A stretch of DNA of 64,000 nucleotides from assembly GCF_000027125.1 (NCBI RefSeq), contig NC_017626.1; one strand, 5' to 3'. The DNA is from Escherichia coli 042 (GTDB lineage Bacteria; Pseudomonadota; Gammaproteobacteria; Enterobacterales; Enterobacteriaceae). The number at the start of each line of letters is the position of its first letter. Within the stretch, counting starts at the first letter, position 1. Shown here in pieces: positions 16,148 to 49,071 of this stretch. Under the pieces are notes generated by a model. That model was not told the origin of the DNA, did not search any database, and was given only the letters and a program-made list of their open reading frames with translations. The position numbers were made by a program, and so were the translations under genes.

Positions 16148-16223
16148 GCCGATATAGCTCAGTTGGTAGAGCAGCGCATTCGTAATGCGAAGGTCGTAGG
16201 TTCGACTCCTATTATCGGCACCA
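16148..16223 (+). tRNA. thrW: tRNA-Thr (anticodon CGU)
   Basis: 76-nt cloverleaf GCCGATATAGCTCAGTTGGTAGAGCAGCGCATTCGTAATGCG...GGTTCGACTCCTATTATCGGCACCA; anticodon loop TTCGTAA; encoded CCA. Confidence 0.9.
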
Positions 16224-16224
16224 T

Positions 16225-16503
16225 TTAAATCAATAAGTTACACATAATTAGTACCTTCCTTTTTTTTGACTGGGACAAATTTGGGACCGATGGGTTCAGG
16301 ACTGAGTCTATTTGCCGTGCGTGTTCGGTAAGGTGATTAGGCGCGAGGTGAGCATATCGACGAACCATTTCGATAGACTCCCAGCCTCCCATTTCTGAAA
16401 ATGCAAGAAGAGAAACACTGGACTGAACCAGCCTGCTTGCCTTTGCTATCAAAGTACCTTGAAGGCCAGATGATTTCTGGCGATATTTACAGCGCTTCCG
16501 CAA
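16225..16503 (-). pseudogene. C-terminal remnant of a tyrosine recombinase (phage-type integrase), 3' end abutting thrW
   Basis: Translation [26 protein letters not shown] carries the integrase C-terminal box with the catalytic Tyr; at most about 90 codons are available before the next gene, so the catalytic core is missing. Confidence 0.55.
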
Positions 16504-16585
16504 TGAGTTTTTCTCTGTGCCGCCAGAGGCGTTCCCCGCTTTTTCAGCACCGCAATAATGTCGGCGGAATGCCAGTCCTGTTGCA

Positions 16586-17056
16586 TCATGCGGCCACCTC
16601 GCTGATAAATTTTACGCCGTCGGCGGTACGCAGCCAGCGTGGGGCTTTGAGTCCTTCCGTGAAATACCAGACCAGCTCACACAGCAGCCCGGTCAGGGTT
16701 TGCTCCATTTTTGGTTCCGCCGGACGTTCCAGCAGAAGCTGGAGTAGTGCGAGGCAGTATTCGCACAAGGAATCAGGTTCGGAAATAAAGTGCTCTGGTG
16801 TGGCGGGAAGGGTATCCACGGTCAGGCTTTCGGTAAGATGCGGTGGGATGGGGTCGTGTAGTGTGGGTTGCAGTAGCGCAAGAGCCGCGTGAAGCCGCCC
16901 GCAGAGCGCCAGTCGTAGCGCTGGATCGTCGGTTTCAATCAGGGTTTCGGCAAAGCGGGCGCAGTAGTCAGCAAGGACAGTGAAATCCGTGGTGGCATTG
17001 AAGGGGACGGTCAATAGATCGAGTAAATCGCTGTCAGTGGTGAGGATTGTAGCCAT
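16586..17056 (-). CDS. Hypothetical acidic, Leu/Ala/Pro-rich protein (156 aa) of unknown function
   Basis: Clean GC-rich ORF with plausible composition; the overlapping plus-strand ORF is Ser/Arg/Gly-rich and looks like a shadow frame. No motif recognised. Confidence 0.45.
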
Positions 17057-17402
17057 AGGGCAACCTCCGATAAGTGGGTGTTCAAGCCACCACCGGAGAG
17101 GCTAATCTCGCGGGTGGTGGAACCGGGCAGGGTTAGCCTTACCAGCCTTATCGGACACTGGCGCGTCTTGCGACGCCCCCGCCCGGCCCACCATTGAGAT
17201 GTAACCGTGCGAACAACACAAAAAAAGACGCTGGCGCGTCATGTGTCGCCGATAAGATTTCTTCAGGAGGCTAATCCCGACGCCTGATTTTGCAGGCGCG
17301 GGAGAAAGATACTGCGATTGGTCATGAGTGGCAAGGGCTACATCATGTTTACCGACATCTCACGCAAAAATACCCTGATTATTAATAGCGAAAATCAGTT
17401 TC

Positions 17403-20400
17403 TTATTTTGGCGGTAGCTTTTTGCGGTTCTTTGCCAACTGGAATCCTTCAGGTAACGGTTTGAATTTATCGCCGCCTTTAGGCCAGCGTTTTGCCCTGC
17501 TCTGAAATGCCCTTAACGAGTCGATATCCAGCGTTGCAGCGACCACAAAGTCATTATCACCGCCCTTCACACGAGCAATATCACGCATAAAGGGTTCTTT
17601 TGCCGGGGAACGTACGCGACTATCGCCGTATTTTCGGTTATTCACTAAAATAGTATAGGCATGAATATCCAGCGCTGCTGATTCAATCAACGATGCAAAC
17701 GTATCTAGATCTTTATTCCAGCTCAATACCATTAATGCATCGAGTGCGCCCTGAAAACGGATCCTCGCTTTACTATTCTGGAGTTCAGAGCAAATCATAA
17801 CGCCAAAATTGACGCCGTGATGAATATATACCGGCTTACGTTGTTTAACATTAAGTGTCGAATCCCAAGACTTACCATAAGTTGAAAATAATGCCTCATC
17901 TTCACCTACGGCGGGTTCCAGCTTGGGTTGCCATATTTTGACACTCGCTGGATAGCCGAGTCTGTTATCTGAAAGGACAAGTACGGCCTCACTCTTCAGT
18001 TGATTATCGTCTAAGTGGCGGTATTCTGTTCCCGCAATTAGACTGATACCCGCCGAACTCAAACGATCAGCAATACTGTTAACCCAGCGTAACGGGATTG
18101 AAAGCTCAGGGAATAAAACATAATCAGGTTTAGGAGATAGTTTCAATGTTGCATTAACCAGTTCAGAAATCCGCTGGTACCTTGAACGGGACAAGTTAGA
18201 TTTATTGCAGGCCATTTTAGCCCAGTCGTCCTCCTCTGTTTTAATGCTGGTTAGCGCAACGACAACTTTATGTTTCCTGTCTGTGCCAATATGAATGAAT
18301 TTCTTAGGCCGAGCTTTTTTTGTCGCTTCATCTGAGTCCTGCTCCGATGCTAGCAACGTCGGTTTGATCCATACTCCGCGTAATGCTTGAGTATATTTTG
18401 CCCAAATGGTGGACGGTCTCTCATCTGGTTTTTTGTCGGATGTGGAGGGTAATCCAACACATTCGGGGGCCAGTTCTGATATTTCAGCGGGTGTTAAAGG
18501 ACGTGTAGGGAAAATGTAAGGTAGGTAACTTTCGTTCTTACGATTTCCTTTAGCCACTTTTTCCAGTCGGGTATTCTTGGTTGATTTCAAAAATAGCTTA
18601 ATAACGTCAATATCAATAAGCGATGAGTCGCTCATTAATTTCAGTATTTTAACTTCTTTTTTACTATCACGCTGATTAACAAGTTTTTCTGCCGACTGAC
18701 TCTTTACGATCTGTTTATAAGGTTCCTTTGCTAAATCAGCTCGAGCTACCAATGGCGCTTTTAAATAAAAATCTGCTGAATCAAAGCGAAGATCCAGTAA
18801 ATCCTTTAGATTCGTCAGACTTTGTGAAATATGATTAAAAAATGTATCCGCAAGGCACTCTTCTTTCTTTGAACGTTTATCAAGAAATAATCTGTCAGGA
18901 CTGTAATATCGTGTCGCTGCATCAACAAATAGCCAGCTTAATGTGCCTTTTATACAGCGCCAAAGATCATTTACTGCTCGAGTTTTGCAACCATTTATAT
19001 TCACTTCCTTACCTGAAGTAATCACCGATGCCAACAGGTTGATGGATTCGTAAGCTTTAAGTACAATTTTTTCCGCGTGCTGCCATTCATTCATACTGAT
19101 AGCAAAGCCAAGCAGCCTTGGCAGATAACTAAAATGTGCAAATAGATTATCAGCCCTAAGAATATGGTTGTAGGCAAACTGATAAAACTCTTCCCGCTGT
19201 TCTTTCCATTCACTTGGAGGCAGATCTCGTGCCAGTGTTTCAACGTAGCGTAATTGCAGTGACCAGCCCAAACGACGAATGGTTAATCCATCCGCACGGC
19301 GCAGAGTATCGGCATTTTCACCTACACTACCGGCAGCGGAAAGGACTTTAGCTGCGGTGGAGTGTTCCAGTTGATCCGGTGAAGGCATCAAGCGGTGTTC
19401 ACTAGAAAGCTCGTAGATCTCCTTTTCGATACTGTCGAGCAGGTCTATTCCAGCCCTCCCTTGAAGCACGAAAAGTTTTTGCTTATCGGATTGTAACTGG
19501 ATGGTGGTCTTACCCTGGAAATGCTCGCCCTGCTGTATTTGCCATATTTGTTTTTGCTCGTTTTTCAAATAAACGCAATCATTGCCAAGCCTATCTTGCA
19601 GCAATAACATAAATTCGTGATTATTAGTAATTGTCCCTGTATCGCGTATTACAAGGAACATATCATCGACATAACGACCGTAGTGAATTGGTGATAGTTT
19701 TTCAATGACTAATTTATCCCAATGGTGTAGCAATATATTTGAAATGATCCGACTGGCTGTTAATCCAATGACCAGACCACCATTAATAACAGGTGTTTTG
19801 TACGCTATTTTCTTTCCAAATGCCGCTGCGCCGTCAGACCAGTGCTTTAAGAATACTGCTAACTGTGCAGTAAACGCTTTTTCATCCTCAGTCAGTTTTA
19901 TGTTTAGTGTGTTATAGAGATCATCAGAGGTTATAGCCAGTGGATCAATAAAATGATAGTAACTTTTTAAATCCAGTGAGGCGGCGATAATGTCACGATC
20001 TTTTTCCAACTCGTCACGTATAGCTTTTAAGCCATCACCACGCCATTTTTGGTAGGGCTGGAAGTAGGGGCTAAAAGAACCCACGGCACTGATATGGAAT
20101 GGATTATCCTGCTCATTGCTAAATAATTCATCATTACGAATACGCTTTAGCCGCGCGCCATAGCAACAGTTATCTAAGCTGGCATCAAATTTATGCCCGA
20201 CCATGTTAATCCATAGTGCAGAGATAATGTGACTATCAACCGGGAAGTCACCAATAATACGAAACTCTGGTATCAGATCAAAATTATTAAATAAATGGTC
20301 GGCTGCTCGTTTAGGATTAGAAAAGTGGACGTGTCCATTTTGGGATTCATGTTTTTTCTTTGTGGTTAATTTTTTCGGTAACAAACGAAATTTGCCAATC

Positions 20401-20612
20401 AACTTCTTATTGCTACTGAATCCATCTTCGCTCTGCAAAAGATCTAAGAGTTTTTGCAGGTTTTCAAGTAATTCCTGCTCATACTCGGCAAATTTGATAG
20501 CAACAGGAAATGTATTCTCAAAGAAGCTATCGGCTTTTGCTTTCCGGTAAGCGACCAGAAGGTCTTCAATCGTCAGATCATCCCAGCCAGTGAAAATTGC
20601 CTGATATGTCAT
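17403..20612 (-). CDS. Reverse transcriptase fused to a C-terminal nitrilase (carbon-nitrogen hydrolase) domain; candidate anti-phage RT (DRT type 1 / UG1-like)
   Basis: 1069 aa. RT motifs: LDLKSYYHFID (motif A-like, aa 213-223), GGLVIGLTASRIISNIL (motif B-like), HYGRYVDDMFLVI (motif C YVDD, aa 314-317, nt 19662-19673). C-terminal nitrilase triad candidates: FPE (E836), VKIWQPK (K892), GVMICSE (C941). AT-rich relative to flanks. Confidence 0.85.
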   Translation of the reverse strand: MTYQAIFTGWDDLTIEDLLVAYRKAKADSFFENTFPVAIKFAEYEQELLENLQKLLDLLQSEDGFSSNKKLIGKFRLLPKKLTTKKKHESQNGHVHFSNPKRAADHLFNNFDLIPEFRIIGDFPVDSHIISALWINMVGHKFDASLDNCCYGARLKRIRNDELFSNEQDNPFHISAVGSFSPYFQPYQKWRGDGLKAIRDELEKDRDIIAASLDLKSYYHFIDPLAITSDDLYNTLNIKLTEDEKAFTAQLAVFLKHWSDGAAAFGKKIAYKTPVINGGLVIGLTASRIISNILLHHWDKLVIEKLSPIHYGRYVDDMFLVIRDTGTITNNHEFMLLLQDRLGNDCVYLKNEQKQIWQIQQGEHFQGKTTIQLQSDKQKLFVLQGRAGIDLLDSIEKEIYELSSEHRLMPSPDQLEHSTAAKVLSAAGSVGENADTLRRADGLTIRRLGWSLQLRYVETLARDLPPSEWKEQREEFYQFAYNHILRADNLFAHFSYLPRLLGFAISMNEWQHAEKIVLKAYESINLLASVITSGKEVNINGCKTRAVNDLWRCIKGTLSWLFVDAATRYYSPDRLFLDKRSKKEECLADTFFNHISQSLTNLKDLLDLRFDSADFYLKAPLVARADLAKEPYKQIVKSQSAEKLVNQRDSKKEVKILKLMSDSSLIDIDVIKLFLKSTKNTRLEKVAKGNRKNESYLPYIFPTRPLTPAEISELAPECVGLPSTSDKKPDERPSTIWAKYTQALRGVWIKPTLLASEQDSDEATKKARPKKFIHIGTDRKHKVVVALTSIKTEEDDWAKMACNKSNLSRSRYQRISELVNATLKLSPKPDYVLFPELSIPLRWVNSIADRLSSAGISLIAGTEYRHLDDNQLKSEAVLVLSDNRLGYPASVKIWQPKLEPAVGEDEALFSTYGKSWDSTLNVKQRKPVYIHHGVNFGVMICSELQNSKARIRFQGALDALMVLSWNKDLDTFASLIESAALDIHAYTILVNNRKYGDSRVRSPAKEPFMRDIARVKGGDNDFVVAATLDIDSLRAFQSRAKRWPKGGDKFKPLPEGFQLAKNRKKLPPK

Positions 20613-20906
20613 GCGTTATCGTCCTTAGATTACAGTCTGTACAGAATTAGCCAGCCGTTTCATGCCCGAAGGGGGGCTCTTGACACCAGTAATCCATCAG
20701 TGAGGCTGGCAATAATTTTGATTTGTATCCATGTTACACGCTCCCCGCAACCAGTCCGAGCATATATTTGTCACATTTTTCCCGAAAGTGATTAAGTTTG
20801 AATTTTTTGTTTAATGTCGATTTTTAGTCGACAAAATGAGGAATAAGTAAACTATTTCTTGCTGTGGCGTATCCCTGAATCTACACTGGTTTAAATATTT
20901 GTACTA

Positions 20907-21710
20907 ATGTCTATTCAGAGGCGACAGTTGCCAAACTATCTAAACTGGCTGATGCAGCACACGCTACCCGGCCAGGTGCTGCTCCAGTCATGGCTTACCC
21001 GCAACGGCATAGATCGTAAGCTCTCTTATCTCTATGTGAAGAATGGCTGGCTCAGGCGGATCGCTCACGGCGTATACTGCCGGACGGGCCGTGAGCCGGA
21101 TTGGGTAGACGCGGTTTACTGCCTTCAAACACAGTGGGAAAAGCCTGTTCGGGTGGCGGGGCTAACCAGCCTTGCGCTTCAGGGCCATGCGCACTATACC
21201 GAACCGGGTAAGCCGCAGGTCTGGCTCGCGCTTCCGGCTTACGTTAAGCTGCCGGGATGGTTTGCTGCCTTCGAACAATCTGCAACATTTATCACGCTGT
21301 ATACATCGGGGCTTACCGTAGATGTAACGTCATTGACTACGGAACTGAAAATTGGCGACCGCCAGTTAGCAGGCAGTGCCCCGGAACTGGCCGCGTATGA
21401 GATCGCCTGCGGCGTTCCTTCGTTGATATCGTTCGAACATGCCGATGCTCTGTTTCAGGGGATGAATCTTCTCAGCCCGCGTAAATTGCAGGCGTTACTC
21501 TGCGCCAGTCATTCGGTTAAAACCAACCGGGTGATGCTTTACCTTGCCCGGCGTAATGGACACCCTTATTTTCAGTATCTTGATCAAAGCGGTATAGAAA
21601 CAGGTACGGGAAAGCGGCAAATCATACCTGGTGGCTGGCTGGAGCCGGATTATCAAATTACTGTTCCACGCGAATTTAAACCGGAAGGAGTCGAAGATGG
21701 ATCTGCGTGA
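20907..21710 (+). CDS. AbiEi-family transcriptional regulator / type IV antitoxin
   Basis: 267 aa; N-terminal AbiEi-type winged-helix signature (YVKNGWLRRIAHGVYCRTG); overlaps and precedes a nucleotidyltransferase gene. Confidence 0.7.
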   Translation: MSIQRRQLPNYLNWLMQHTLPGQVLLQSWLTRNGIDRKLSYLYVKNGWLRRIAHGVYCRTGREPDWVDAVYCLQTQWEKPVRVAGLTSLALQGHAHYTEPGKPQVWLALPAYVKLPGWFAAFEQSATFITLYTSGLTVDVTSLTTELKIGDRQLAGSAPELAAYEIACGVPSLISFEHADALFQGMNLLSPRKLQALLCASHSVKTNRVMLYLARRNGHPYFQYLDQSGIETGTGKRQIIPGGWLEPDYQITVPREFKPEGVEDGSA

Positions 21711-22617
21711 TAGCTATACCCGGCAGGTCAAACTGTTGATGGACGCTCTGCCGCATGTGGCGAAGGAGTCCGGTTTCGCATTAAAAGGCGGCACCGCAAT
21801 CAATTTGTTTGTGCAGGATTTTCCCCGTCTGTCGGTGGATATCGATCTGGCGTATAAGACTTTTGCGGATCGCGATACCGATTTGACGGCGATCAACGAC
21901 GCTTTGAAGAGAATTACTGCATCGCTGAACAGTAAACCGGGGATTACCGCGATTCGGCAGGAAAATAAAACGGATGAAAAGCGCATCATTGTGAATACGG
22001 CTGATGCCCAGATTAAGATCGAGGTTAGTCCGGTCTGGCGTGGGCTATTGTTGCCTCCGGCAGAAATGTCGGTGTGCGAACGTGTGGAAATGGAGTATGG
22101 CTTCACCACTATGAGTGTCGTTTCGCTGGCGGATCTTTATGGCGGTAAAATCTGCGCAGCGCTTGATCGTCAGCACCCGCGCGATCTGTTTGATGTGCTG
22201 AATATGCTGGAGAAACCGGGACTGATGCGGGAGATCTTTGACGGTTTTCTTTGTTATCTGGCAGGCCATCCCCGCCCCATTGCCGAGTTGCTGGCTCCAA
22301 ACTGGGATACAGAGCGGATCACGACGCTGTATGCTCAGGAATTTTCGGGGATGACTCAGCAGGAAACGTCGCTGGAATCGCTGCTGTCAGTAACGACTTT
22401 GCTGCCGCAGGCGTTGAAGTCACATCTTACGGATCTGGATCGCGAGTTCTTGCTCAGTTTTAAGCAAAACAGCCCTGACTGGTCGCGGTATCGCTATCCT
22501 GAAATTCAGCATCTTCCGGCTATTCGCTGGAAGCAACGTAATCTGGCGGTGCTGAAAGATAAAAATCCGGCGAAGTATGTGGCGGCGGTGAATAAGCTAG
22601 AGAGGGTGCTGGCGTAA
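21697..22617 (+). CDS. AbiEii/AbiGii-family nucleotidyltransferase toxin (DUF1814)
   Basis: Start set at ATG 21697 (GGAAGGAG Shine-Dalgarno, 14-nt overlap with the upstream gene); nucleotidyltransferase motif ALKGGTAINLF...RLSVDIDLA. Confidence 0.75.
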   Translation: MDLRDSYTRQVKLLMDALPHVAKESGFALKGGTAINLFVQDFPRLSVDIDLAYKTFADRDTDLTAINDALKRITASLNSKPGITAIRQENKTDEKRIIVNTADAQIKIEVSPVWRGLLLPPAEMSVCERVEMEYGFTTMSVVSLADLYGGKICAALDRQHPRDLFDVLNMLEKPGLMREIFDGFLCYLAGHPRPIAELLAPNWDTERITTLYAQEFSGMTQQETSLESLLSVTTLLPQALKSHLTDLDREFLLSFKQNSPDWSRYRYPEIQHLPAIRWKQRNLAVLKDKNPAKYVAAVNKLERVLA

Positions 22618-22682
22618 TCAATAGACCAGCATTAATCACAGAAGATTACCAATCAGACAGAAATGGTTAAATCGTCGAATTC

Positions 22683-22850
22683 ATAATTAATACTTTTTCT
22701 TACGCCGCTGAACAGCTTGAAAAGGATACATATTTTAAATATCAGTGAAGTGAACAGTTTATTGCCGTTATTAATAGAGATGGAGGAATAAATACGCGTA
22801 TTCTACTATTGCAACAAAAAAAACGATGATGATCAGTTTTCATAATGAAG
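22683..22850 (-). repeat. Decayed paralogous copy of the ykgO 3' end plus ykgR region (duplicate of sequence at 41307-41340 and 42020-42176)
   Basis: 22683-22720 aligns to the rpmJ2 3' end at about 75% identity with a 1-nt frameshift (tail ...AVQRRKKKY vs ...AVQGRKKKR); 22723-22850 is about 90% identical to 42030-42160 but with a roughly 28-nt deletion in the ykgR-like frame. Confidence 0.5.
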
Positions 22851-23059: not shown

Positions 23060-23944
23060 TCAGATTTTCAATGTATCAATGACCATCCGCAGGGCGGGGG
23101 AGACGTTGCGATGAGGGTAATAGAGAAACAATCCCTCCATTCGCAGGCTGTAACGCTGCAACACCCTGATAAGCTTACCGTGTTCTAAATCATCCGCGAC
23201 CAGTTCAACAGGAACATAGGCCAATCCGAGGCCCAGCCGGGCTGCTTCTGCTTCCATATAGCTGTCGGATAAGGCCCATTGCCCTTCAGGGCGATGAGTG
23301 ATTTTTTTATCATCCTGATTGAGTTCCCACTGGTATACGCTGCCGTCGGCAAACTGATAGGCGATACAGGGATGCGCCTTTAAATCCGCCGGGGTTTGCG
23401 GAAAACCATAGCGACGAAAATGTTCCGGAGTCCCCACAATTGCCATCTCCATATCGGGCGTGATGCGTACCGCGACCATACCCTGGCCGACTTCAGGCCC
23501 CAGGCGGACACCTGCATCGAATCTTTCCTCGATGATATCGACGAACCGGCTCTCATTTATCAGTTCAAGCCGGATATCAGGATATCGCTGTTTAAATACC
23601 GCCAGATTTGGCAGCAGGCATTTATCAATCGCGTGCTGGCTGGCATTGATACGCACCGTGCCGGAGGGCGTCTCTCGATAGTGCGCCAGCGTGGCAAGCC
23701 CAAGATCTAACATTTCAAATCCAGATGCCGTCTTCTGGTAGAGCTGCTCGCCTGCTTGTGTCAGCGACAGTTTACGCGTGGTGCGCACTAGCAGCTGGAC
23801 ACCCAGCCTTTCTTCAAGCTCGCGAACAGAACGGCTGACTCCTGACTGAGCAAGACCCAGCCGCTGAGCCGCTGCGGTAAAGCTGCCTTCTCGCACCACC
23901 TGCATAAACAGGTACAGCTCGTTGTAGTTCTCCCTTTTCGCCAT
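23060..23944 (-). CDS. LysR-family transcriptional regulator
   Basis: 294 aa; N-terminal HTH (FTAAAQRLGLAQSGVSRSVRELEERLGVQLLVRTTR) and LysR substrate-binding domain; divergent from the hydrolase gene. Confidence 0.85.
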   Translation of the reverse strand: MAKRENYNELYLFMQVVREGSFTAAAQRLGLAQSGVSRSVRELEERLGVQLLVRTTRKLSLTQAGEQLYQKTASGFEMLDLGLATLAHYRETPSGTVRINASQHAIDKCLLPNLAVFKQRYPDIRLELINESRFVDIIEERFDAGVRLGPEVGQGMVAVRITPDMEMAIVGTPEHFRRYGFPQTPADLKAHPCIAYQFADGSVYQWELNQDDKKITHRPEGQWALSDSYMEAEAARLGLGLAYVPVELVADDLEHGKLIRVLQRYSLRMEGLFLYYPHRNVSPALRMVIDTLKI

Positions 23945-24109
23945 TGAAACATCCCCCCTTCATGCCGGCAATCTCCGCATTAATTTATAACAATATGGTA
24001 TTAATCTTAGCATTAATCGCCCCCTAATCAGCACTAATTCTGCTCACTATAATGACCCCATCAAAGCAAAGCACTGCAGCGTTGTCCGTCGGAAACCTGT
24101 ATCTCTCTG

Positions 24110-25267
24110 TTGTTTTTTATGGGGATTTTTATGAAAGCCTTCACCCGAACGCTAAAAACCGCGATGCCGACCATGCTGCTTTTCGCGTCATTATGTGGAG
24201 TCACGACAATGAGTTATGCTGATTCAACCAATCCTAATGCCCCTGTGTCCATGACAGATAAATGGGATAAAACGTTCGCCGAGAGCCAGAAAGTCGATCA
24301 CCGTAAAGTATCGTTCCCGAACCGATATGGCATCACCTTAGTGGGCGATCTTTACCTGCCTAAAGACCGTGGCGATCGCAAGCTGGCGGCGATTGCGGTC
24401 AGTGGGCCATTTGGCGCGGTGAAAGAGCAATCCAGCGGCCTGTATGCGCAGACGCTGGCGGAACGAGGGTTTGTTACCCTGGCGTTCGATCCTTCTTACA
24501 CCGGGGAAAGCGGCGGCTATCCGCGAAACGTCGCCTCACCGGATATCAACACTGAAGATTTCAGCGCGGCGGTGGATTTCTTAGGGCTGCAAAAAGAGGT
24601 AGATCGCAACCGTATCGGGCTGCTCGGTATTTGTGGCTGGGGCGGCATGGCGCTGAACGACGTGGCGATGGATACCCGCGTTAAAGCGGTAGCTACCAGC
24701 GTGATGTATGACATGAGCCGGGCGATGGGTCATGGTGTGGGGGATGGCAAAGACCGTTATTCTACCGCCGACCGTCGTGCCGTTCTGCAATATCTGAATG
24801 AACAGCGCTGGAAGGATGCGCAGAGCGGAACGTTCGCTCACGGTGGTCATGATATTAATGTCGACAGCAACGGCAAGGTCAGTGCGGGCGAGCGCATTCT
24901 GCCAGAAACGCTGCCGGCAAATCCTCATCCGGTACTGAAAGAGTTCTTTGACTACTATCGCATGCCGCGCGGCTTCCACGAACGTTCCGTTAACTCTACC
25001 GGGGCGTGGACGGCAACGATGCCGCTGTCATTTATGAATATGCCGCTGTTGAGCTACGCCAGTGAAATCACCATTCCGACGCTGATTGTGACCGGTGAGA
25101 AAGCGCATTCACGCTATTTTGCTGAAGATGCTTACAAGGCGGTTGGCAGTAAAGACAAAGAGTTGGTGGTGGTACCAGGGGCAAATCACGTGGACCTGTA
25201 CGATAACGTGGCCGGAAAAATACCTTTCGCGAAGTTCGAACAATTTTTCCAGACCAAACTGAAATAA
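24110..25267 (+). CDS. Alpha/beta-hydrolase (dienelactone-hydrolase-like) with N-terminal signal peptide
   Basis: Signal-like N-terminus (MKAFTRTLKTAMPTMLLFASLCGVTTMSYA; start could be ATG 24131); hydrolase core LGICGWGG; paralogous to the protein at 44037-44957. Confidence 0.8.
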   Translation: MFFMGIFMKAFTRTLKTAMPTMLLFASLCGVTTMSYADSTNPNAPVSMTDKWDKTFAESQKVDHRKVSFPNRYGITLVGDLYLPKDRGDRKLAAIAVSGPFGAVKEQSSGLYAQTLAERGFVTLAFDPSYTGESGGYPRNVASPDINTEDFSAAVDFLGLQKEVDRNRIGLLGICGWGGMALNDVAMDTRVKAVATSVMYDMSRAMGHGVGDGKDRYSTADRRAVLQYLNEQRWKDAQSGTFAHGGHDINVDSNGKVSAGERILPETLPANPHPVLKEFFDYYRMPRGFHERSVNSTGAWTATMPLSFMNMPLLSYASEITIPTLIVTGEKAHSRYFAEDAYKAVGSKDKELVVVPGANHVDLYDNVAGKIPFAKFEQFFQTKLK

Positions 25268-25342
25268 AACCTCTCCTGAATTGATGCAAAGCCACCGGTC
25301 TATGGCCGGTGGCTTTTATCCTGATCTTTGTGAAATTTCACT

Positions 25343-26536
25343 ATGTCGACACTAAGCCAAACACTATCACCTCATCATCAGCGCGCATACTGGGGCGGTA
25401 TTTTTGCCATGACCCTGTGCGTGTTTGTGCTGATTGCTTCTGAATTTATGCCCGTCAGCCTGCTCACGCCGATTACCCGCGATTTAGGCGTGACGGAGGG
25501 GCTGGCAGGGCAGGGGATTGCTATCTCCGGCGCGCTGGCGGTTCTGACCAGCCTGACGCTTTCAACGCTAGCTGGAAAGATGAATCGTAAGTTCCTGCTG
25601 CTGGGGATGACGGTTCTGATGGCCGTATCGGGGCTTATTATTGCGCTGGCTTCCAGTTATCTGATGTATATGGTCGGTCGTGCGATGATTGGTGTGGCCA
25701 TTGGCGGATTCTGGTCGATGTCAGCGGCAACGGCTATTCGTCTGGTACCGCAGCATCAGGTTACGCGTGCGCTGGCGATTTTCAACGCCGGTAATGCGCT
25801 GGCGACGGCCGTGGCCGCACCGCTGGGAAGCTATCTGGGGGCTAAGGTCGGATGGCGAGGCGCTTTCTTGTGCCTGGTGCCTATCGCGGTTGTCGCCTTT
25901 ATCTGGCAATGCATTAGTCTGCCAAGCATGGATGCGAATAAAAGCCACACGTCATGTGGCGCGGTATTCCGCTTATTTAGCCGCCGCATGGTTGTGGTCG
26001 GCATGATAGCCTGCGGCCTGTTTTTCATGGGGCAGTTTGCACTATTCACCTATGTGCGCCCGTTTCTGGAGTCGGTGACACGGGTTAATTCCTTAGGCTT
26101 GTCGTCGATTTTGTTGATTATCGGCGTGGCCGGTTTTATTGGCACGCTGGTTGTTTCGGCATTTCTCAACAGAAAATTCTACCCCACGCTGATGGCCATA
26201 CCCGGACTGATGGCCGTCATTGCCATCGGTCTGATGCTTACCGGGCATCACGTCTGGACGGTCTCGCTGCTGTTAGGACTCTGGGGCATGCTGGCCACCG
26301 CCGCGCCAACCGGATGGTGGACATGGATTGCGCGTACGTTGCCTGACAACGCCGAAGCTGGAGGCGGGCTCATGGTCGCGGTGATTCAGCTCGCCATCGC
26401 CCTTGGATCAACGGCAGGAGGCATCGTGTTTGACCGCCTTGGCTGGCAGAGCACGTTTGCTATGAGTAGCGTGCTGCTCCTTTGCGCTGGCGTACTGACC
26501 TTTGTTACCGCACGCCAGAAGGCCGGTGCGCTTTAG
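25343..26536 (+). CDS. MFS-family transporter
   Basis: 397 aa with about 12 predicted transmembrane segments; MFS-like composition. Confidence 0.85.
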   Translation: MSTLSQTLSPHHQRAYWGGIFAMTLCVFVLIASEFMPVSLLTPITRDLGVTEGLAGQGIAISGALAVLTSLTLSTLAGKMNRKFLLLGMTVLMAVSGLIIALASSYLMYMVGRAMIGVAIGGFWSMSAATAIRLVPQHQVTRALAIFNAGNALATAVAAPLGSYLGAKVGWRGAFLCLVPIAVVAFIWQCISLPSMDANKSHTSCGAVFRLFSRRMVVVGMIACGLFFMGQFALFTYVRPFLESVTRVNSLGLSSILLIIGVAGFIGTLVVSAFLNRKFYPTLMAIPGLMAVIAIGLMLTGHHVWTVSLLLGLWGMLATAAPTGWWTWIARTLPDNAEAGGGLMVAVIQLAIALGSTAGGIVFDRLGWQSTFAMSSVLLLCAGVLTFVTARQKAGAL

Positions 26537-26579
26537 TCCGGCGAGGGCGCGCGTTGCTGAATAAGTTACACAAGGCGAT

Positions 26580-26612
26580 GAGCGCCCACTATGGGTTGGG
26601 CGCTCTTTTAAA
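26580..26612 (+). terminator. Rho-independent terminator after the MFS gene
   Basis: 9-bp stem GAGCGCCCA / TGGGCGCTC with an 8-nt loop, followed by TTTTAAA; lies between convergent genes. Confidence 0.6.
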
Positions 26613-26661
26613 CGATTTAGGTGATTTTCTAAAACGGCTACTGCAGATTTTTTCTCTTAAT

Positions 26662-32540: not shown

Positions 32541-32788
32541 TGCATTGAATAATAAAAATGGCGCAAATGCAGCGCCATTTTTATAGGTTAAAAACATTGC
32601 TTTTTACTTTCTGAAGCAGATAGCCAGTGAGTACATCGCGCTACTTCAGGATGCTGTAGATCCGGAGAACACTATAGAGGAAGATGCATTGTTGCTGGCA
32701 GATGGAAGAAGTTTCGGGTTTTGTTATCCCTGAAAAACGAAGCCCCGCGGTTATAGCTGGCGGGGCAGTGCAATTAATTATTGCATAT

Positions 32789-40292: not shown

Positions 40293-41306
40293 TTACAGGT
40301 ACATTCAGTTTCTTTAGTAAATCGGAAGTAAATAAGATACGTAGCACATATCAATATAGGTTAAACGAGATTAAGTTTTAATTATTTCGATTAGGTTTAA
40401 ATTTATGTTTTTTTCCTGATGAGTGTCAATATGTGAACAGAAAAGGAATTCCATGGTTAAGTCAATATTTACAAAAAATGAAAATATTGCTTTTTTGATA
40501 AGAAGAAAAAGACATTCAGTTTCATAAGGTTATTGGCAATATAACGTTCAATTCTTACTTGCATTTTATATTAGCCAGGAACTTTGCCCTGAGGTGTTAG
40601 GAATAGTCTTAATGTGTTGTGTAATGGACTAGTAAAAAAACAAGTTTAAATGATAAGAAATAGAATATAAAACTATCATGAGTCATAATTAAAGATGATT
40701 TGCCAATCAGTAAGGTGTTTTAATGGATTAACATGCCGCACAAAATGGTTATGGGTGTTCATCCCAATAAGTGATGAAAAATTAAACAGGTGTAAGTACG
40801 TCATCTGTCCGGTAAGCCCCCTAAGAGCCAAATTAAGTGAAGTTAAACGAAGACTGCCAGTTGTCACAGGAACGATGGCCTCTTTGCCAGGGCACTGGAT
40901 TCAGTCATCTGTGCGCGTTACTCTAACTGGCACTCGAACGTCGGCGATGGGGTTACCGGTGGATCAGGCCGTTCCTGTGGCGTAAACGTTTTTATGTCAG
41001 TACCAACAGATTTACCACATTTATCATCTTAACAGTTTGAGTGTAAATGCAGGCTGCGTCGCAAAGGGAGGAAACTGAGTGGCGTGTTCAGTCTAAAAGA
41101 GGGTTGATGCCAGCATACAGGGCGAAGCTGGTCAACAAGTCAACATTAAGATAATGGAATATTCGGAGAGAAACGTCAGGCAGTTGACCTTAAATGAAGA
41201 GGAAGATATATCCCCAGGAAAATTAATGCTGGTGTAATAAATACACCAACATTAATCAGGTCTGATTATTAATCAGACAAATATCGTTAATCCGGCGAAT
41301 TATGAA

Positions 41307-41447
41307 TCAACGTTTTTTCTTACGCCCCTGAACGGCCTTAAAACGTGGATTAGATTTACAAATCACATACAGCCGTCCTTTTCGCTTCACAATCTGACAG
41401 TCTGGATGGCGTTCTTTTGCGGTACGCAGAGAGTTAAGGACTTTCAT
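41307..41447 (-). CDS. rpmJ2: Zinc-independent paralog of ribosomal protein L36
   Basis: Not in the ORF track (46 aa). Manual translation [46 protein letters not shown]; start overlaps the rpmE2 stop by 1 nt. Confidence 0.85.
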
Positions 41448-41713
41448 CACGCCCCCTTTTTCGTGCTAACAAAACGACCAAAACGTTGGGTGAACCGTGC
41501 AACATTTCCTTCTGATGCTACTGTTCTCAGCTTCCCTGTATAGAACGGGTGCGATTTCGAAGAGACATCAATTGTCACGTACGGATACGTTACGCCATCC
41601 AGCTCAATCTCACGGTCTGTTTTGATAGTCGAGCCGATTTTAAAGTACTCATCAACACTGGTGTCATGGAACACCACAGTACGATACTCAGGATGGATAT
41701 TGGGTTTCATCAT
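41447..41713 (-). CDS. rpmE2: Zinc-independent paralog of ribosomal protein L31
   Basis: 88 aa, [33 protein letters not shown]...; no CxxC zinc ribbon. Confidence 0.9.
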
Positions 41714-41720
41714 TTTTACC

Positions 41721-41741
41721 CGTTATGTTATAACATAACCG
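41721..41741 (-). promoter_or_regulatory. Zur box in the rpmE2-rpmJ2 promoter
   Basis: Near-perfect palindrome CGTTATGTTATAACATAACCG, 8 nt upstream of the rpmE2 start codon. Confidence 0.7.
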
Positions 41742-42074
41742 TAAAGATACATGCTCATCCGGATCATTTCAACACCCAATCCCTGTGACCATTTGTGGTA
41801 TGTGGAATTTCCTCAACGGGGAAGTCTGGCATTGTTAACAGCCATTGGCTGACGCTCCCATAAACGCCTGGATGAGTGATTGATGATGGTTTCGCTGAGA
41901 GTATGGATTTTTCGAGAATGGAGGTTATCTCCACTTTACTGGCCGATGATTTATCGCAGTATGATTGATTACCTGACAGCGTGTATTCCTCTCCCACGGA
42001 TATAATAATTACTTACAAAAAGGGAGAGGATGCATATTTTAAATATCACTGAAGTGAACAGTTTATTGCCGTTA

Positions 42075-42176
42075 TTAATAGAAATGGAAAAATAAATAGG
42101 CGTATTCTACAATTGCGACAAAAACAACGATATTAATCAGTTTATGACTGATTTGTTGTACTTTATTCTCTTTCAT
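42075..42176 (-). CDS. ykgR: Small hydrophobic protein YkgR (33 aa)
   Basis: Manual translation MKENKVQQISHKLINIVVFVAIVEYAYLFFHFY; below the ORF-track length cut-off; matches my recollection of YkgR. Confidence 0.6.
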   Translation of the reverse strand: MKENKVQQISHKLINIVVFVAIVEYAYLFFHFY

Positions 42177-42649: not shown

Positions 42650-43792
42650 TTAATCCATTAACGGAAACCAGCCAGTTCCTTTCGATGCCTGAATTTGATC
42701 CCATAGTTTATCCGGAATGGTTAATTCAGGAACAAGTTGTGGATTAAGGGTTGTTTGAATTTCATGGCTTCTACCTGATTCAGCTAAAGTCACCCATTCT
42801 GGATTTATCACCAGCCCTTTACCGATCGCAACAAGTGGCAGGCCAGTGGAAATTGCTTCTTGAGCCTGAGACGGTGTGCGTATTTTACCTGCGGCGATTA
42901 CCGGCACTCTGCCTGCAATATGATTTAAAATCAATTCAATAGTTCGGGGGCCATTTGGCGACTCAACAGGGTAGCTATCGTTAATACTGACCAGCGAGGT
43001 ATGTATATACGAAATACCGGATGAAATGAGCCGATCAAGGAGTTTATAAGTATCCTCTATCCGCAGCCCCCCTGTTGCAGATTCTTCAGGAGATATTTTG
43101 TAACCGATGGCAAAGGGCTTTGTCGCATATTCATAGACTACATTTTTTACTTCCTGTAATACGGCCAGCGGGAAGCGCATACGTCCTTCGAGATCTCCTC
43201 CCCATCGGTCATTACGCTGGTTAAATAGAGGGGAGAAGAAATTCTGTAGAAGGAATCCGTGCGCACCATGAAGTTCAATGCCATCAAAACCTGCTTTAAT
43301 CGCCCTTTTTGTGACATCTCCGAATGCTCTAATGGTTTCCTGAATTTCGTTTTCAGTCATTTCCCTGCTTTTTACCACTCTCTTCATAAAGTCACCAGAT
43401 TTTACGCTTGATGCGCTGGCACTAATAACATCGTTATTTGGTACAAGCTCCGGGATGGCTTTATTACCGGCGTGGAAAATCTGCAAAATAGCCGGAGCAC
43501 CGCCACTTTTGGCTGCCGCTGCTAACTTTTCAAGGCTGTTAATGAAACGGTCGTCATACGCGGCAAATTCATGAGTAAACCCAATGCCGTTTGGCGTGAC
43601 ATAGGTACATCCTGTTATTACTAAACCAACATTTTGTGAGCGACGTTTATAAAATTCGAGTTCTTGCTCAGAGATGGTTCCATCAGGATTCGCTGACCAG
43701 GTCGTCATAGGAGCCATAACGATACGATTACGTAGCTTTATTTTTTCTGTCAGCATAAAAGGAGAAAACAATGATGGGTGTTTATTTGTCAT
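42650..43792 (-). CDS. NADH:flavin oxidoreductase (Old Yellow Enzyme family)
   Basis: 380 aa; OYE-like TIM-barrel motifs (RIVMAPMTT, IFHAGNKA). Confidence 0.85.
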   Translation of the reverse strand: MTNKHPSLFSPFMLTEKIKLRNRIVMAPMTTWSANPDGTISEQELEFYKRRSQNVGLVITGCTYVTPNGIGFTHEFAAYDDRFINSLEKLAAAAKSGGAPAILQIFHAGNKAIPELVPNNDVISASASSVKSGDFMKRVVKSREMTENEIQETIRAFGDVTKRAIKAGFDGIELHGAHGFLLQNFFSPLFNQRNDRWGGDLEGRMRFPLAVLQEVKNVVYEYATKPFAIGYKISPEESATGGLRIEDTYKLLDRLISSGISYIHTSLVSINDSYPVESPNGPRTIELILNHIAGRVPVIAAGKIRTPSQAQEAISTGLPLVAIGKGLVINPEWVTLAESGRSHEIQTTLNPQLVPELTIPDKLWDQIQASKGTGWFPLMD

Positions 43793-44036
43793 AACAATAC
43801 CTCAAATGTTTATCTGATTTTGATGCGTATGTTTTAACTGGTTAGTTGTTGCCAGCTTTGGAACCAAGGTTTATGGCTTTATTTATAATTCCTTCAAAGG
43901 GTTTCTAATAATCTTAATAATTGAGTTGCTGCTTTTTTGTTTCTTTAATGAAATTTCTTTTTGAGTAATTTTATTATTGTTGTGTAGTCAATAAAGGATA
44001 AATGTCAGGGAGATAAGGAATCTCCCTGTAAGATTA

Positions 44037-44957
44037 TTACAAATGTGTTTTATAAAAAGGAATTAATTTATCGAGTGCCTGTTTCACAGGTTCTGGCTTA
44101 TCATACAGGTCGTAATGTGAATAACCTTCAACCACGACCAGCTCTTTATGTTTTGAGGCAGCGCGGCCAATAATTTCGCAGCCGTCACGGTAGGCACCAA
44201 ATGCGCCCACTCTATCGCCCACCACAACCATTATTGGTTGAGTTAACAGGACTTCTGCAAGATGAAATGCATCCCAACCCACGGCAACAGTCTGATGTGA
44301 GAATAGCGAACGATTTACCCCATTAGGTGCACAGCCTCGTGGCGAACGATAATATTCTGTGGCTTCAAAAAGGTCTATTTCTGTTAATCCCGCTTCAAGA
44401 GCTGCATCCGGAGAAGAGGGGAGTAAATCATCTACGCGAAGTTTTGCGCCGTTAGCTTCGTCTGTTCTTTGTTGCGCCATTGCTTCGAGTGCTCCGATAG
44501 GATTAAACGCTGTAAATCCCTCACGCATAAGACGCCCGTAGTTTGCACCCGTGACAGTACCAATAGCTTTAATTCGACGTTCTGTCATTGCGGCATTAAT
44601 GGCATATCCACCTCCACCACAAATACCCAGTACACCAATACGCCCGGCATCAACGTAAGGTAAGGTGGTAAGGTAATCAACGACAATGCTGAAGTCTTTT
44701 ACTCGCATTGTTGGATCTTCCAGATAACGCGGTTCTCCACCGCTGCTTCCCTGAAAACTGGCATCAAAAGCAATGACGATAAAGCCAGCTTTTGCCAGGG
44801 CGGCACCATACACACTACCCGATGTTTGTTCTTTGCAGCTTCCAATTGGATGGGCGCTGATAATGGCAGGATACTTTTTTTCACTATTAAAATCGTCAGG
44901 GAAATAGATATCAGCAGCTATATCCCAGTAAGTATGTTTTATCGAAACAGTTTTCAT
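44037..44957 (-). CDS. Alpha/beta-hydrolase (dienelactone-hydrolase-like), cytoplasmic paralog of 24110-25267
   Basis: 306 aa; hydrolase core LGICGGGG; shares a conserved block with the 24110 protein (AFDASFQGSSGGEPR vs AFDPSYTGESGGYPR). Confidence 0.8.
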   Translation of the reverse strand: MKTVSIKHTYWDIAADIYFPDDFNSEKKYPAIISAHPIGSCKEQTSGSVYGAALAKAGFIVIAFDASFQGSSGGEPRYLEDPTMRVKDFSIVVDYLTTLPYVDAGRIGVLGICGGGGYAINAAMTERRIKAIGTVTGANYGRLMREGFTAFNPIGALEAMAQQRTDEANGAKLRVDDLLPSSPDAALEAGLTEIDLFEATEYYRSPRGCAPNGVNRSLFSHQTVAVGWDAFHLAEVLLTQPIMVVVGDRVGAFGAYRDGCEIIGRAASKHKELVVVEGYSHYDLYDKPEPVKQALDKLIPFYKTHL

Positions 44958-45113
44958 TTCAAGCTCCGGGGAATTGCCTAAACAGATTTAAATATCATTT
45001 CTATTATCCGCAACTGGCATTCGTGTTCATGTCGAGAACGGCGTAATAGTATGACTTGTATTGGTTATCATCAATGGTCTAATATCTATCACAGTGTTAA
45101 GTTAAGGTTTACA

Positions 45114-46040
45114 ATGATGAAAATAGAGCCTTCAATTTTGCCTTCTCTTGCCTGGTTTGCGCTGATTGTTCGTGCCGGCAGTTTTTCCAGAGCCGCTTCT
45201 GAAATGGGTATTACGCGGGCCGCATTGTCCCAGAATTTAAAATCTCTTGAGGAACGTCTTAACACCAAGCTGATATACCGTACGACCCGCAATATGTCGC
45301 TTACTGAGGAAGGACAGCGTCTGTATGAAGTGCTGGTGTCGGCTTTGGGGCAAATTGATGATGCTTTGAAAGATGTTGGTGATACCCAACTTGAACCTAC
45401 AGGCCTGTTGAGAATAAATTCCTCCCGTGTTGCAGCACGGATGCTTGTTGAGCCTCATATTGGCGAGTTTCTTACTCGTTACCCCAAAACAAAGATAGAA
45501 CTCATTATGGATGACGGTTTATCTAACATTATTGCGGACGGCTGTGATGTGGGCATACGTCTTGAGCAAGGACTGGATGAGCATATGACTGCCATTCCTG
45601 TTTCTCCGCTTATTAAACTGGTTACTGTGGCATCGCCAGATTATTTAAAAGAGCACGGTATTCCTGAAACGCCTCAGGAACTGAGTAACCATAATTGCCT
45701 TCGGTTGCGGCATAAAAGTAGTGGTGCACTCTCTGCATGGGAGTTTTCTAATGTTGCGGGGGGTAATGAAGAGTTCGAAATAGAGGTTTCAGGTAAGTAT
45801 ATTTCTAATGATGACGAAAGCATGATACGAATGGCGCTGAATGGAACGGGTATCATTCAACATCTGGATTTTGCAATCGCTGAACATATCAATGCGGGCA
45901 AGTTACAGCCGATTCTTGAGGATTGGGCTGTTTCATTTCCTGGATTTTATATTTATGTTTCATCACGGGTGAGAATGCCCTCTAAAGTTCGTGCTTTTAT
46001 TGATTTTATGGTGGAGAAAAGAGTAAAACTCGAAAATTGA
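45114..46040 (+). CDS. LysR-family transcriptional regulator
   Basis: Start set at MMKIEPS; HTH (FSRAASEMGITRAALSQNLKSLEERLNTKLIYRTTR); divergent from the hydrolase gene. Confidence 0.85.
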   Translation: MMKIEPSILPSLAWFALIVRAGSFSRAASEMGITRAALSQNLKSLEERLNTKLIYRTTRNMSLTEEGQRLYEVLVSALGQIDDALKDVGDTQLEPTGLLRINSSRVAARMLVEPHIGEFLTRYPKTKIELIMDDGLSNIIADGCDVGIRLEQGLDEHMTAIPVSPLIKLVTVASPDYLKEHGIPETPQELSNHNCLRLRHKSSGALSAWEFSNVAGGNEEFEIEVSGKYISNDDESMIRMALNGTGIIQHLDFAIAEHINAGKLQPILEDWAVSFPGFYIYVSSRVRMPSKVRAFIDFMVEKRVKLEN

Positions 46041-46195
46041 TGATATGTGTAATTGATGGTTGCTCTGGGCGAATATCGGTAAGAGGAATAACGTAATCAT
46101 TAGGACGCGTTTACATAATAAACTTTCTGATAATTAATACTTATTTTCTATACGGCCATAATATCAATTATCATTATCACCGGTAATGTGGTTAA

Positions 46196-49071
<2,876 letters not shown>

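Follow-up and report, generated by a model that had tools for sequence, protein, structure and literature searches.

Does the chromosome of Escherichia coli 042 carry two copies of one ancient regulator/hydrolase unit, and what might such a unit do? The question is raised by a stretch of 64,000 nucleotides (NC_017626.1; here called the window), in which two genes for alpha/beta hydrolases each stand divergent to a gene for a LysR-type regulator. Module 1 consists of LysR1 (23060-23944, minus strand, 294 amino acids (aa)) and the hydrolase Hyd1 (open reading frame (ORF) 24110-25267, plus strand), followed by a transporter gene. In module 2, Hyd2 (44037-44957, minus strand, 306 aa) is paired with LysR2 (ORF 45051-46040, plus strand; 308 aa from the RefSeq start at 45114). 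An earlier sequence-only reading had given these ORF positions and the divergent pairing, both of which agree with the ORF order and domains found here, and had explained the modules by an old segmental duplication, with which our results disagree. Hyd1 and Hyd2 are anciently diverged members of the YcjY/PA2218 alpha/beta hydrolase family, the trio of LysR1, Hyd1 and the transporter moves between genomes as a cassette of three genes, and each module entered E. coli on its own, by horizontal transfer. Taken as one set, the homology, family signature, fold, export-signal features, linkage, mobility and independent origin are probable in our estimate.

The homology of the two hydrolases was confirmed by pairwise alignment. 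Hyd1 and Hyd2 share 32% identity over 323 columns (BLASTP, E 7e-35), a full-length homology far above that of unrelated alpha/beta hydrolases, and the conserved blocks that had suggested their kinship, LGICGWGG/LGICGGGG and AFDPSYTGESGGYPR/AFDASFQGSSGGEPR, are present in the two proteins. Hyd1 matched Pseudomonas aeruginosa PA2218 (PDB 2HDW, a structural-genomics entry) with 62% identity and E 2e-125, and shares with it the GICGWGG motif and an extra N-terminal WDKTF segment. Hyd2 matched E. coli YcjY over its full length (41% identity, E 8e-78) and PDB 5XB6, the YcjY structure, with E 4e-67, while the cross matches of Hyd1 and Hyd2 to the other solved member gave E 1e-43 to 1e-44 and Hyd1 is 34% identical to YcjY. 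YcjY and its regulator PgrR (YcjZ) are like the modules in family, fold, the motifs G-I-C-x-x-x-G and N-H-x-D-L-Y-D and the divergent LysR arrangement, and LysR1 and LysR3 (a third LysR-type regulator, encoded beside module 2) are 41-47% identical to PgrR. Unlike the two hydrolases of the window, YcjY forms an orthologous group of its own and is encoded outside the window.

When 1.84 billion cluster representatives were searched with a profile, 905 clusters came out at E<=1e-30. The family signature is a cysteine at the nucleophile elbow, in G-[IV]-C-x-x-G-G, together with a histidine in H-x-D-L-Y-D after the last strand; the nucleophile column held cysteine in 73 of the 78 full-length cluster representatives, and the histidine was kept in 69 of them. 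The corresponding residues are Cys168 (codon 24632-24634) and His353 (codon 25187-25189) in Hyd1, and Cys113 (codon 44619-44621) and His281 (codon 44115-44117) in Hyd2. A structure model has the alpha/beta-hydrolase fold with a family lid of about 100 residues and places the cysteine after strand 127-137 and before helix 139-148, the nucleophile-elbow position. In an alignment with the esterase PET46 (8B4U), Hyd2 Cys113 falls on the motif GLSMGG, which holds the catalytic serine. The segment AFD-x-S-x-x-G-x-S-G-G-x-P-R corresponds to the D-x-x-G-x-G-x-S-x-G loop that is common after strand 4 of alpha/beta hydrolases, and G-I-C-G-x-G-G is the informative conserved block of the two hydrolases. 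The GESGG block was considered as a second nucleophile motif and rejected, since it belongs to this common loop and the PET46 serine aligns to GICG.

The description of both enzymes as dienelactone-hydrolase-like is right for the cysteine nucleophile, which both possess, and goes too far as a family assignment. Dienelactone hydrolase (PF01738; Cys-His-Asp) has the same fold and an elbow cysteine, but Hyd1 had no match to its Pfam model and Hyd2 only a marginal one (25.0 bits against a cut-off of 21) that covers positions 12-123 of 217 in the profile. Both proteins are also 70-110 residues longer, with a large lid, and their acid after strand 7 is not conserved. Pfam and NCBIfam scans found no specific family for Hyd1 or Hyd2, only partial generic alpha/beta-hydrolase matches that end at the nucleophile, the top one for Hyd2 being Peptidase_S15. 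The nearest structural relatives of the hydrolases are esterases and thioesterases. The fungal polyketide hydrolases DcsB (7D78, a thioesterase) and GrgF (6LZH) matched weakly (E 1e-9 to 1e-7, about 20% identity). They act on thioester and lactone chemistry with a serine nucleophile and, unlike the modules, are eukaryotic biosynthetic enzymes with no LysR or transporter linkage.

The N-terminal extension of Hyd1 is real and Hyd2 has no equivalent, so that the proposed division into an exported and a cytoplasmic enzyme is supported by sequence features. Hyd1 (24131-25267, plus strand) likely starts at ATG 24131, which has GGGGA six bases upstream, and is then a 378-aa precursor. Its residues 1-30 (24131-24220), MKAFTRTLKTAMPTMLLFASLCGVTTMSYA, carry a charge of +3, a hydrophobic core (best 12-residue hydropathy 1.83) and S-Y-A preceding the predicted cut before D. 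By rule-based assessment, the n-region, the h-region and the small residues at -3/-1 of a Sec signal are all present; a Sec-type export signal with a predicted cut after A30 is well supported. These features were kept in 14 Hyd1 orthologs from other genera, in which the signal part is 72% identical, with in-frame indels, against 88% for the mature part. In an alignment of 7 loci, variation in codons 2-26 was 8/8/17 by codon position, indicating that these codons are translated. No N-terminal hydrophobic or signal segment was found in Hyd2 or YcjY when checked alongside the Hyd1 orthologs. The RefSeq annotation pipeline PGAP often starts Hyd1 at Met27 (352 aa) and thereby drops the signal peptide (window 24131-24208; locus L002, 21301; locus L009, 10613), while the frame upstream of Met27 is intact in the strains with the 352-aa call. 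In distant loci, the majority of the hydrolases most similar to Hyd1 carry Sec or twin-arginine signals, with Sec-type signals in Bacteroidota and others. Twin-arginine signals were seen on Hyd1-type orthologs of Microvirga, Rhizobium, Marinomonas, Brevundimonas and Arthrobacter (loci L075, L079, L083, L086, L087 and L073).

LysR1, LysR2 and LysR3 all contain the domains HTH_1 and LysR_substrate (E 1e-19 to 1e-39). LysR1 is 42% identical to LysR3, 41% to PgrR and 29% to LysR2 (over 286 columns, E 9e-48), and LysR2 has 32% identity to PgrR. Among the NCBIfam models, LysR1 and LysR2 both scored best with a YafC-like one, below its cut-off in each case. The assignment of the two regulators to the same LysR subfamily is acceptable in a broad sense only.

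Hyd1 is linked to a major facilitator superfamily (MFS) transporter gene of DHA1 type, NepI/SotB-like (25343-26536, plus strand; Pfam MFS_1, E 6e-38). The protein scored 287.7 bits against the NCBIfam NepI model (NF007578; cut-off 584), and is therefore not NepI itself. The gap between the two genes is 75 nt and contains no terminator-like site, and the MFS gene is probably co-transcribed with Hyd1. This linkage was kept in Serratia, Klebsiella, Marinomonas, Pseudomonas, Brevundimonas and phages, and in Enterobacter a LysR1 ortholog (87% identity) adjoins the Hyd1 ortholog. In Serratia marcescens the cassette is 86.5% identical in DNA over 3413 bp, from the LysR stop codon (23060) to 26470, about 66 bp before the MFS gene ends; in Klebsiella michiganensis identity is 79%. 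Across Enterobacterales the Hyd1 orthologs are 84-95% identical in protein, and the LysR1-Hyd1-MFS trio stands in unrelated neighbourhoods in Klebsiella, Citrobacter and other enterobacteria. A 77%-identical copy of the trio lies beside the integrase of an E. coli lambdoid prophage (L096-L098, 6946-10508), and the P2-like Yersinia phage vB_YpM_115 carries the trio between its tail genes and sheath gene (L099, 2946-6508). Leclercia, Pantoea, Kosakonia, Enterobacter and Klebsiella have copies of module 1 with 87% identity on plasmids; the MFS gene is absent from the single plasmid inspected closely, which is from Leclercia. The exported enzyme thus travels with regulator and transporter on phages, and with at least the regulator on plasmids. 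The record of vB_YpM_115 labels the LysR and MFS genes pgrR and nepI by similarity.

Of 5426 complete E. coli genomes, 912 (17%) have module 1 (23060-26536); module 2 (42650-46040) was complete in 1782 E. coli genomes. Downstream of Hyd2 lies a gene for an old-yellow-enzyme-type (OYE) NADH:flavin oxidoreductase (42650-43792, minus strand; Pfam Oxidored_FMN, E 4e-76), which adjoins Hyd2-type genes also in E. albertii, Cedecea and Paraburkholderia. The gap of 244 nt makes co-transcription of Hyd2 and OYE uncertain, and no remnant of an NAD(P)-binding partner was found in it. To the right of LysR2 a separate block (46265-49056) contains LysR3 (46265-47158, plus strand) and two aldo/keto reductase (AKR) genes (47189-48178 and 48205-49056, minus strand). 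E. coli K-12 lacks the 6.3 kb corresponding to window 42742-49070 (OYE, Hyd2, LysR2, LysR3 and the two aldo/keto reductases) by a clean deletion, and its pseudogene ykgP is the 3' stub of the OYE gene. E. albertii carries module 2 with a hydrolase of 99% protein identity. Module 2 is a low-GC block, ancestral to Escherichia, that K-12 has lost.

The comparison of both modules with their relatives speaks for separate arrivals. Both hydrolases have orthologs of 57-95% identity in other genera and classes, and Hyd2 also in other phyla. In a scan of one genome per species, Hyd2 orthologs with 57-77% identity were found in Rhizobium (77%), Paracoccus, Paraburkholderia, Chryseobacterium, Streptomyces (65%), Gordonia, Vibrio and others, a distribution that is patchy across phyla. 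Hyd2 is nearer to the unlinked K-12 ycjY product than to Hyd1 (41% against 32%), and LysR1 is nearer to LysR3 and PgrR than to LysR2; the hydrolase and regulator trees disagree, which means that these genes were not duplicated as pairs. The Hyd1, Hyd2 and YcjY groups were each recovered in 200 of 200 neighbour-joining bootstraps, with mean distances of 0.3-0.5 within and 1.1-1.5 between groups; as the ortholog groups were defined by best BLAST hit, the bootstraps gauge how cleanly they separate and not their discovery. The midpoint root of the cluster-representative tree parts Hyd1 from Hyd2 and YcjY. The WDKxF motif had also been tried as a clade divider, gave no clean split (0/100 bootstraps) and was replaced by the ortholog-based groups. 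The G+C content at third codon positions (GC3) is 58-65% in module 1, 33-38% in OYE-Hyd2-LysR2 and about 50% in the LysR3-AKR-AKR block.

What had suggested a duplication is that ykgO/ykgR-type sequence stands beside both modules, in direct orientation, and this is indeed the case. Next to module 1, window 22607-22723 holds the 3' end of ykgL, a terminator and the last ~12 codons of ykgO (76% identical to 41227-41343), and 22723-22839 (minus strand) holds the 3' 23 codons of ykgR with downstream DNA (90% identical to 42027-42143; annotated in RefSeq as partial ykgR; translation KLIIIVFFVAIVEYAYLFLHLY*). The source sequence is intact at 41307-42176 on the minus strand (ykgO 41307-41447, ykgM 41447-41710, ykgR 42075-42176; RefSeq annotation carried over from an identical genome, with the translations checked). 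In the remnant the two pieces are joined directly, the intervening 684 bp (ykgO 5' part, ykgM and promoter) being deleted. The remnant occurs in 908 genomes against 912 for module 1, and each module-1 locus examined has it. Also in favour of a duplication, in locus L010 (GCA_032671725.1, 1770-8390) the LysR3-AKR-AKR block, which flanks module 2 here, directly adjoins LysR1-Hyd1-MFS, both with about 85% DNA identity to the window, so that this block and the cassette are neighbours elsewhere. However, colinear blocks, comparable divergence and congruent trees of the paired genes, which mark a segmental duplication, were not found. When the DNA of the two modules was compared, the 233 bp of the ykg remnant were the only match and nothing pointed to a duplicated block. 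Relative to ykgR, the genes of the two modules stand in opposite order, the GC3 values differ as given above, and each hydrolase has far closer orthologs in other phyla or orders than in the other module. The decayed remnant still retains 76-90% DNA identity while the hydrolases are at 32% and the regulators at 29% in protein; being so much less diverged, it cannot date the hydrolase split. It forms the left edge of a 4-kb block common to module-1 E. coli genomes, with strain-dependent DNA further left, and it lies outside the cassette shared with other genera, since homology to Serratia begins at the LysR stop, 220 bp to its right. It was absent from all non-E. coli loci fetched. A single old duplication in the E. 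coli chromosome that also copied ykgO/ykgR is therefore very improbable; the three separate ortholog groups argue against it as well. As a guess, the remnant may have come with the module as flanking DNA from a close relative in which the module stood beside ykg genes.

The neighbours of Hyd2 in other bacteria bear on what these enzymes may do. Among the loci with a Hyd2 ortholog, 13 have a YcjY ortholog next to it; in 11 of these the YcjY gene directly precedes it, and in 2 (Rudaea and Lysobacter) it follows at a distance of a few hundred bases. The identity of these YcjY orthologs to the E. coli protein is 70-82% for the proteobacterial loci and 45-70% for those of Chryseobacterium and Streptomyces. 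The proteobacterial pairs are headed by a divergent regulator, which is PgrR-like (61-73% identity) in Agrobacterium, Nitratireductor and Pleomorphomonas, and LysR2-like (50-54%) in Paraburkholderia, Rudaea, Pseudomonas, Stenotrophomonas and Bowmanella. The genes downstream recurrently encode NAD(P)H enzymes, namely a 212-aa NAD_binding_10 protein, OYE, flavodoxin-like quinone reductases and a short-chain dehydrogenase/reductase (SDR). In Gastranaerophilales metagenome-assembled genomes (non-photosynthetic relatives of cyanobacteria; L039, 3932-5921; L042, 793-2830), Hyd2-like and Hyd1-like genes stand in tandem, so that tandem paralogs recur in the family beyond the YcjY/Hyd2 pair.

The same arrangement explains two small ORFs of K-12 (locus L003, NC_000913.3 1386000-1394000). 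The 21-aa ymjD (4869-4934) corresponds, at the exact syntenic position, to residues 1-18 of the Hyd2-type hydrolase encoded after ycjY orthologs in Rhizobiales (61%, E 2e-6), and ymjC (4681-4863) to residues 1-47 of the NAD_binding_10 partner (53-57%, E 1e-13). The K-12 order ycjY-ymjD-ymjC-mpaA is thus a decayed YcjY/Hyd2/reductase operon, of which ymjD and ymjC are relics and which is intact elsewhere.

For the regulation of module 1, the 186-bp divergent control region (23945-24130) was aligned from 5 loci, those of four genera and L010, with a mean column identity of 84%. An imperfect dyad, ATAAC-N5-GGTAT (23987-24001), is kept in the five aligned loci, and a TATAAT hexamer (24048-24053) is identical in 5/5, with a leader of about 70 nt; LysR1 may bind at the former and the promoter may be used at the latter. 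A structured RNA leader upstream of Hyd1 was considered and rejected, since its fold was no better than that of shuffled sequences (z 0.37) and the Rfam scan found no family match in either module. The control region of module 2 (156 nt, 44958-45113, 63% A+T) has two promoter-like sites on the plus strand, and no LysR box or clear dyad could be defined in it. Two intergenic regions, that of module 1 and that of ycjY, are enriched in repeats of TAATC/CTAAT type (P 0.007-0.02), with longer, six-base variants reaching P 0.0004-0.0008 in the ycjY region only. As the repeat motif was chosen post hoc and does not occur in module 2, a shared LysR box is a lead only.

From these elements a working scheme may be drawn. 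LysR1 would probably bind the conserved dyad, sense a small molecule and activate the promoter with the perfect -10 and poor -35; Hyd1 would be exported by Sec, cleaved after S-Y-A30 and act in the periplasm through its only cysteine, and the MFS protein would move its substrate or product across the inner membrane. Likewise, LysR2 would sense a small molecule and activate the divergent Hyd2 promoter, and Hyd2, perhaps in an operon with OYE, would do its work in the cytoplasm, either ahead of the OYE reduction or following it. We infer activation of the hydrolase genes by LysR1 and LysR2 from the usual behaviour of LysR regulators and from PgrR, which is reported to bind the ycjY/ycjZ intergenic region and to control ycjY (PMC5934670; also Shimada et al. 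2013, as cited in PMC4797297). Hydrolysis would then be one step of an inducible detoxification or catabolism. Since the nucleophile is a cysteine, as it is in dienelactone hydrolase, the closest relatives in structure are esterases and thioesterases, and reductase genes abound in the neighbourhood, we tentatively suggest that the enzymes cleave ester, lactone or thioester bonds in electrophilic or quinone-related substrates, an assignment that is possible but still somewhat doubtful. A wider proposal is rather unlikely to hold: that YcjY/PA2218 proteins are distinct Cys-His hydrolases joined with NAD(P)H ene- or quinone-reductases for the inducible destruction of electrophilic lactones, esters and quinone-derived compounds, with the YcjY and Hyd2 types working only as a pair, in successive steps or within a hetero-oligomer, and Hyd1-MFS as a spreading, envelope-protecting arm on phages and plasmids. 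If true, this would make Hyd1-MFS a new determinant of lysogenic conversion or resistance.

Other functions can be derived from the same data. Module 1 might be a mobile resistance cassette in the manner of AmpR-AmpC, in which a LysR-induced periplasmic hydrolase inactivates a toxic ester or lactone (e.g. an antibiotic or a plant or fungal toxin) and the MFS protein expels the toxin. In AmpR-AmpC, too, a LysR gene is divergent from that of an exported hydrolase; the likeness is architectural only, AmpC being a serine beta-lactamase of unrelated fold. A divergent LysR, a hydrolase predicted to be exported, a DHA1-type efflux-like transporter, carriage by temperate phages and plasmids, and the high protein identity across many Enterobacterales genera all suit such a cassette, but no phenotype or substrate is known for it, the transporter could import instead, the Leclercia plasmid copy does without it, and the genes are also stably established in the chromosome of 17% of E. 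coli genomes, so that we judge this unlikely. Another function would be that of peptidases or amidases in the recycling of cell-wall peptides, as the PgrR regulon (ycjY-ymjDC-mpaA, ycjG, mppA) and the Pfam matches (S15, S9, S33) could suggest. PgrR has been described as a regulator of peptidoglycan recycling that controls ycjY along with mpaA (PMC5934670), and YcjY overexpression led to filamentation (PMC3614548); Peptidase_S15 is the best Pfam match of Hyd2, and a periplasmic copy could reach murein peptides. These arguments lose force because the Pfam matches are limited to the generic N-terminal half, the operon partners elsewhere are NAD(P)H reductases and not murein enzymes, the closest structural relatives are esterases and thioesterases, and the adjacency of ycjY and mpaA in K-12 is due to the deletions that left the ymjD/ymjC stubs; a decayed operon makes this abutment a weaker argument for YcjY in murein recycling. 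We consider a murein role for the hydrolases quite improbable. An old candidacy as polymerases or depolymerases of short-chain poly-3-hydroxybutyrate (cPHB) deserves hardly any credence. It goes back to Rychlewski et al., who, as a review reports (PMC3709699), named ycjY a candidate cPHB polymerase through G-x-C-x-G and fold similarity. The corresponding match ranked 52nd here, well under esterases and thioesterases, no polyhydroxyalkanoate (PHA)-synthase family appeared in the Pfam or NCBIfam scans, and the operon partners are reductases.

Several points weigh against our own account of two independently acquired members of a cysteine-hydrolase family, one of them exported, under LysR control. 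The position after strand 7, where the canonical acid would stand, is not conserved (E 21, S 18, D 13 and T 6 among 69 representatives). As no third triad residue could be identified, hydrolase activity is assumed from conservation only; the Asp at His+2 is acidic in 81% of the representatives, and catalysis may proceed by a Cys-His dyad or with an unusual acid. The literature searched on YcjY, PA2218, 5XB6/2HDW, DcsB and PgrR yielded no substrate for any family member and no publication for the structures 5XB6 and 2HDW. Met27 is the RefSeq choice of start for Hyd1 and also has a GGAG upstream. A free catalytic cysteine, the only cysteine of mature Hyd1, is unusual in the oxidising periplasm. 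The 84% intergenic conservation of module 1 is not above that of coding DNA (77-88%), so constraint on the control region is suggested and not proven, and the candidate LysR sites, a dyad and TAATC-type repeats found post hoc, are only a lead.

As accessory genes these are unremarkable, and existing annotation already labels them alpha/beta hydrolase and LysR family regulator. They show that E. coli can carry three members (YcjY, Hyd2 and Hyd1) of an uncharacterised cysteine-hydrolase family of at least 905 sequence clusters, and that RefSeq frequently trims the signal peptide of the exported one. The tandem paralogs and NAD(P)H reductases under a LysR switch offer handles for finding the substrates of a family with two orphan crystal structures.

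The window is part of the E. coli chromosome with proA, tRNA-Thr, paoABCD, yagU, ykgJ, the ecp operon, ykgL-ykgO-ykgM-ykgR, fdeC and rclABC. To the left of module 1 lies a tRNA-Thr island (16148-22617; tRNA-Thr at 16148-16220), which carries a P4-type C4 antisense RNA and isrK at 17110-17299. In strain 7/2 (98% identical) this island also has a gene for a reverse transcriptase of ~1069 aa and an AbiEi/AbiEii pair ending at 22617; it looks like a defence island. Strain C325 has an additional pair of LysR and SDR genes left of the ykg remnant. The site downstream of paoD (26537-26661) is variable between strains, and in K-12 it holds yagP (L008, 4382-4792), a piece of a further LysR from this broad group, with 35% identity to LysR3 and 28% to LysR1. 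A reading of yagP as a stub of LysR1 was rejected, since it had no DNA match to LysR1 and its protein is nearer to LysR3. Between the pao and ecp regions, the Rfam scan detected IS009 (RF02111, 190.7 bits) at 32546-32746.

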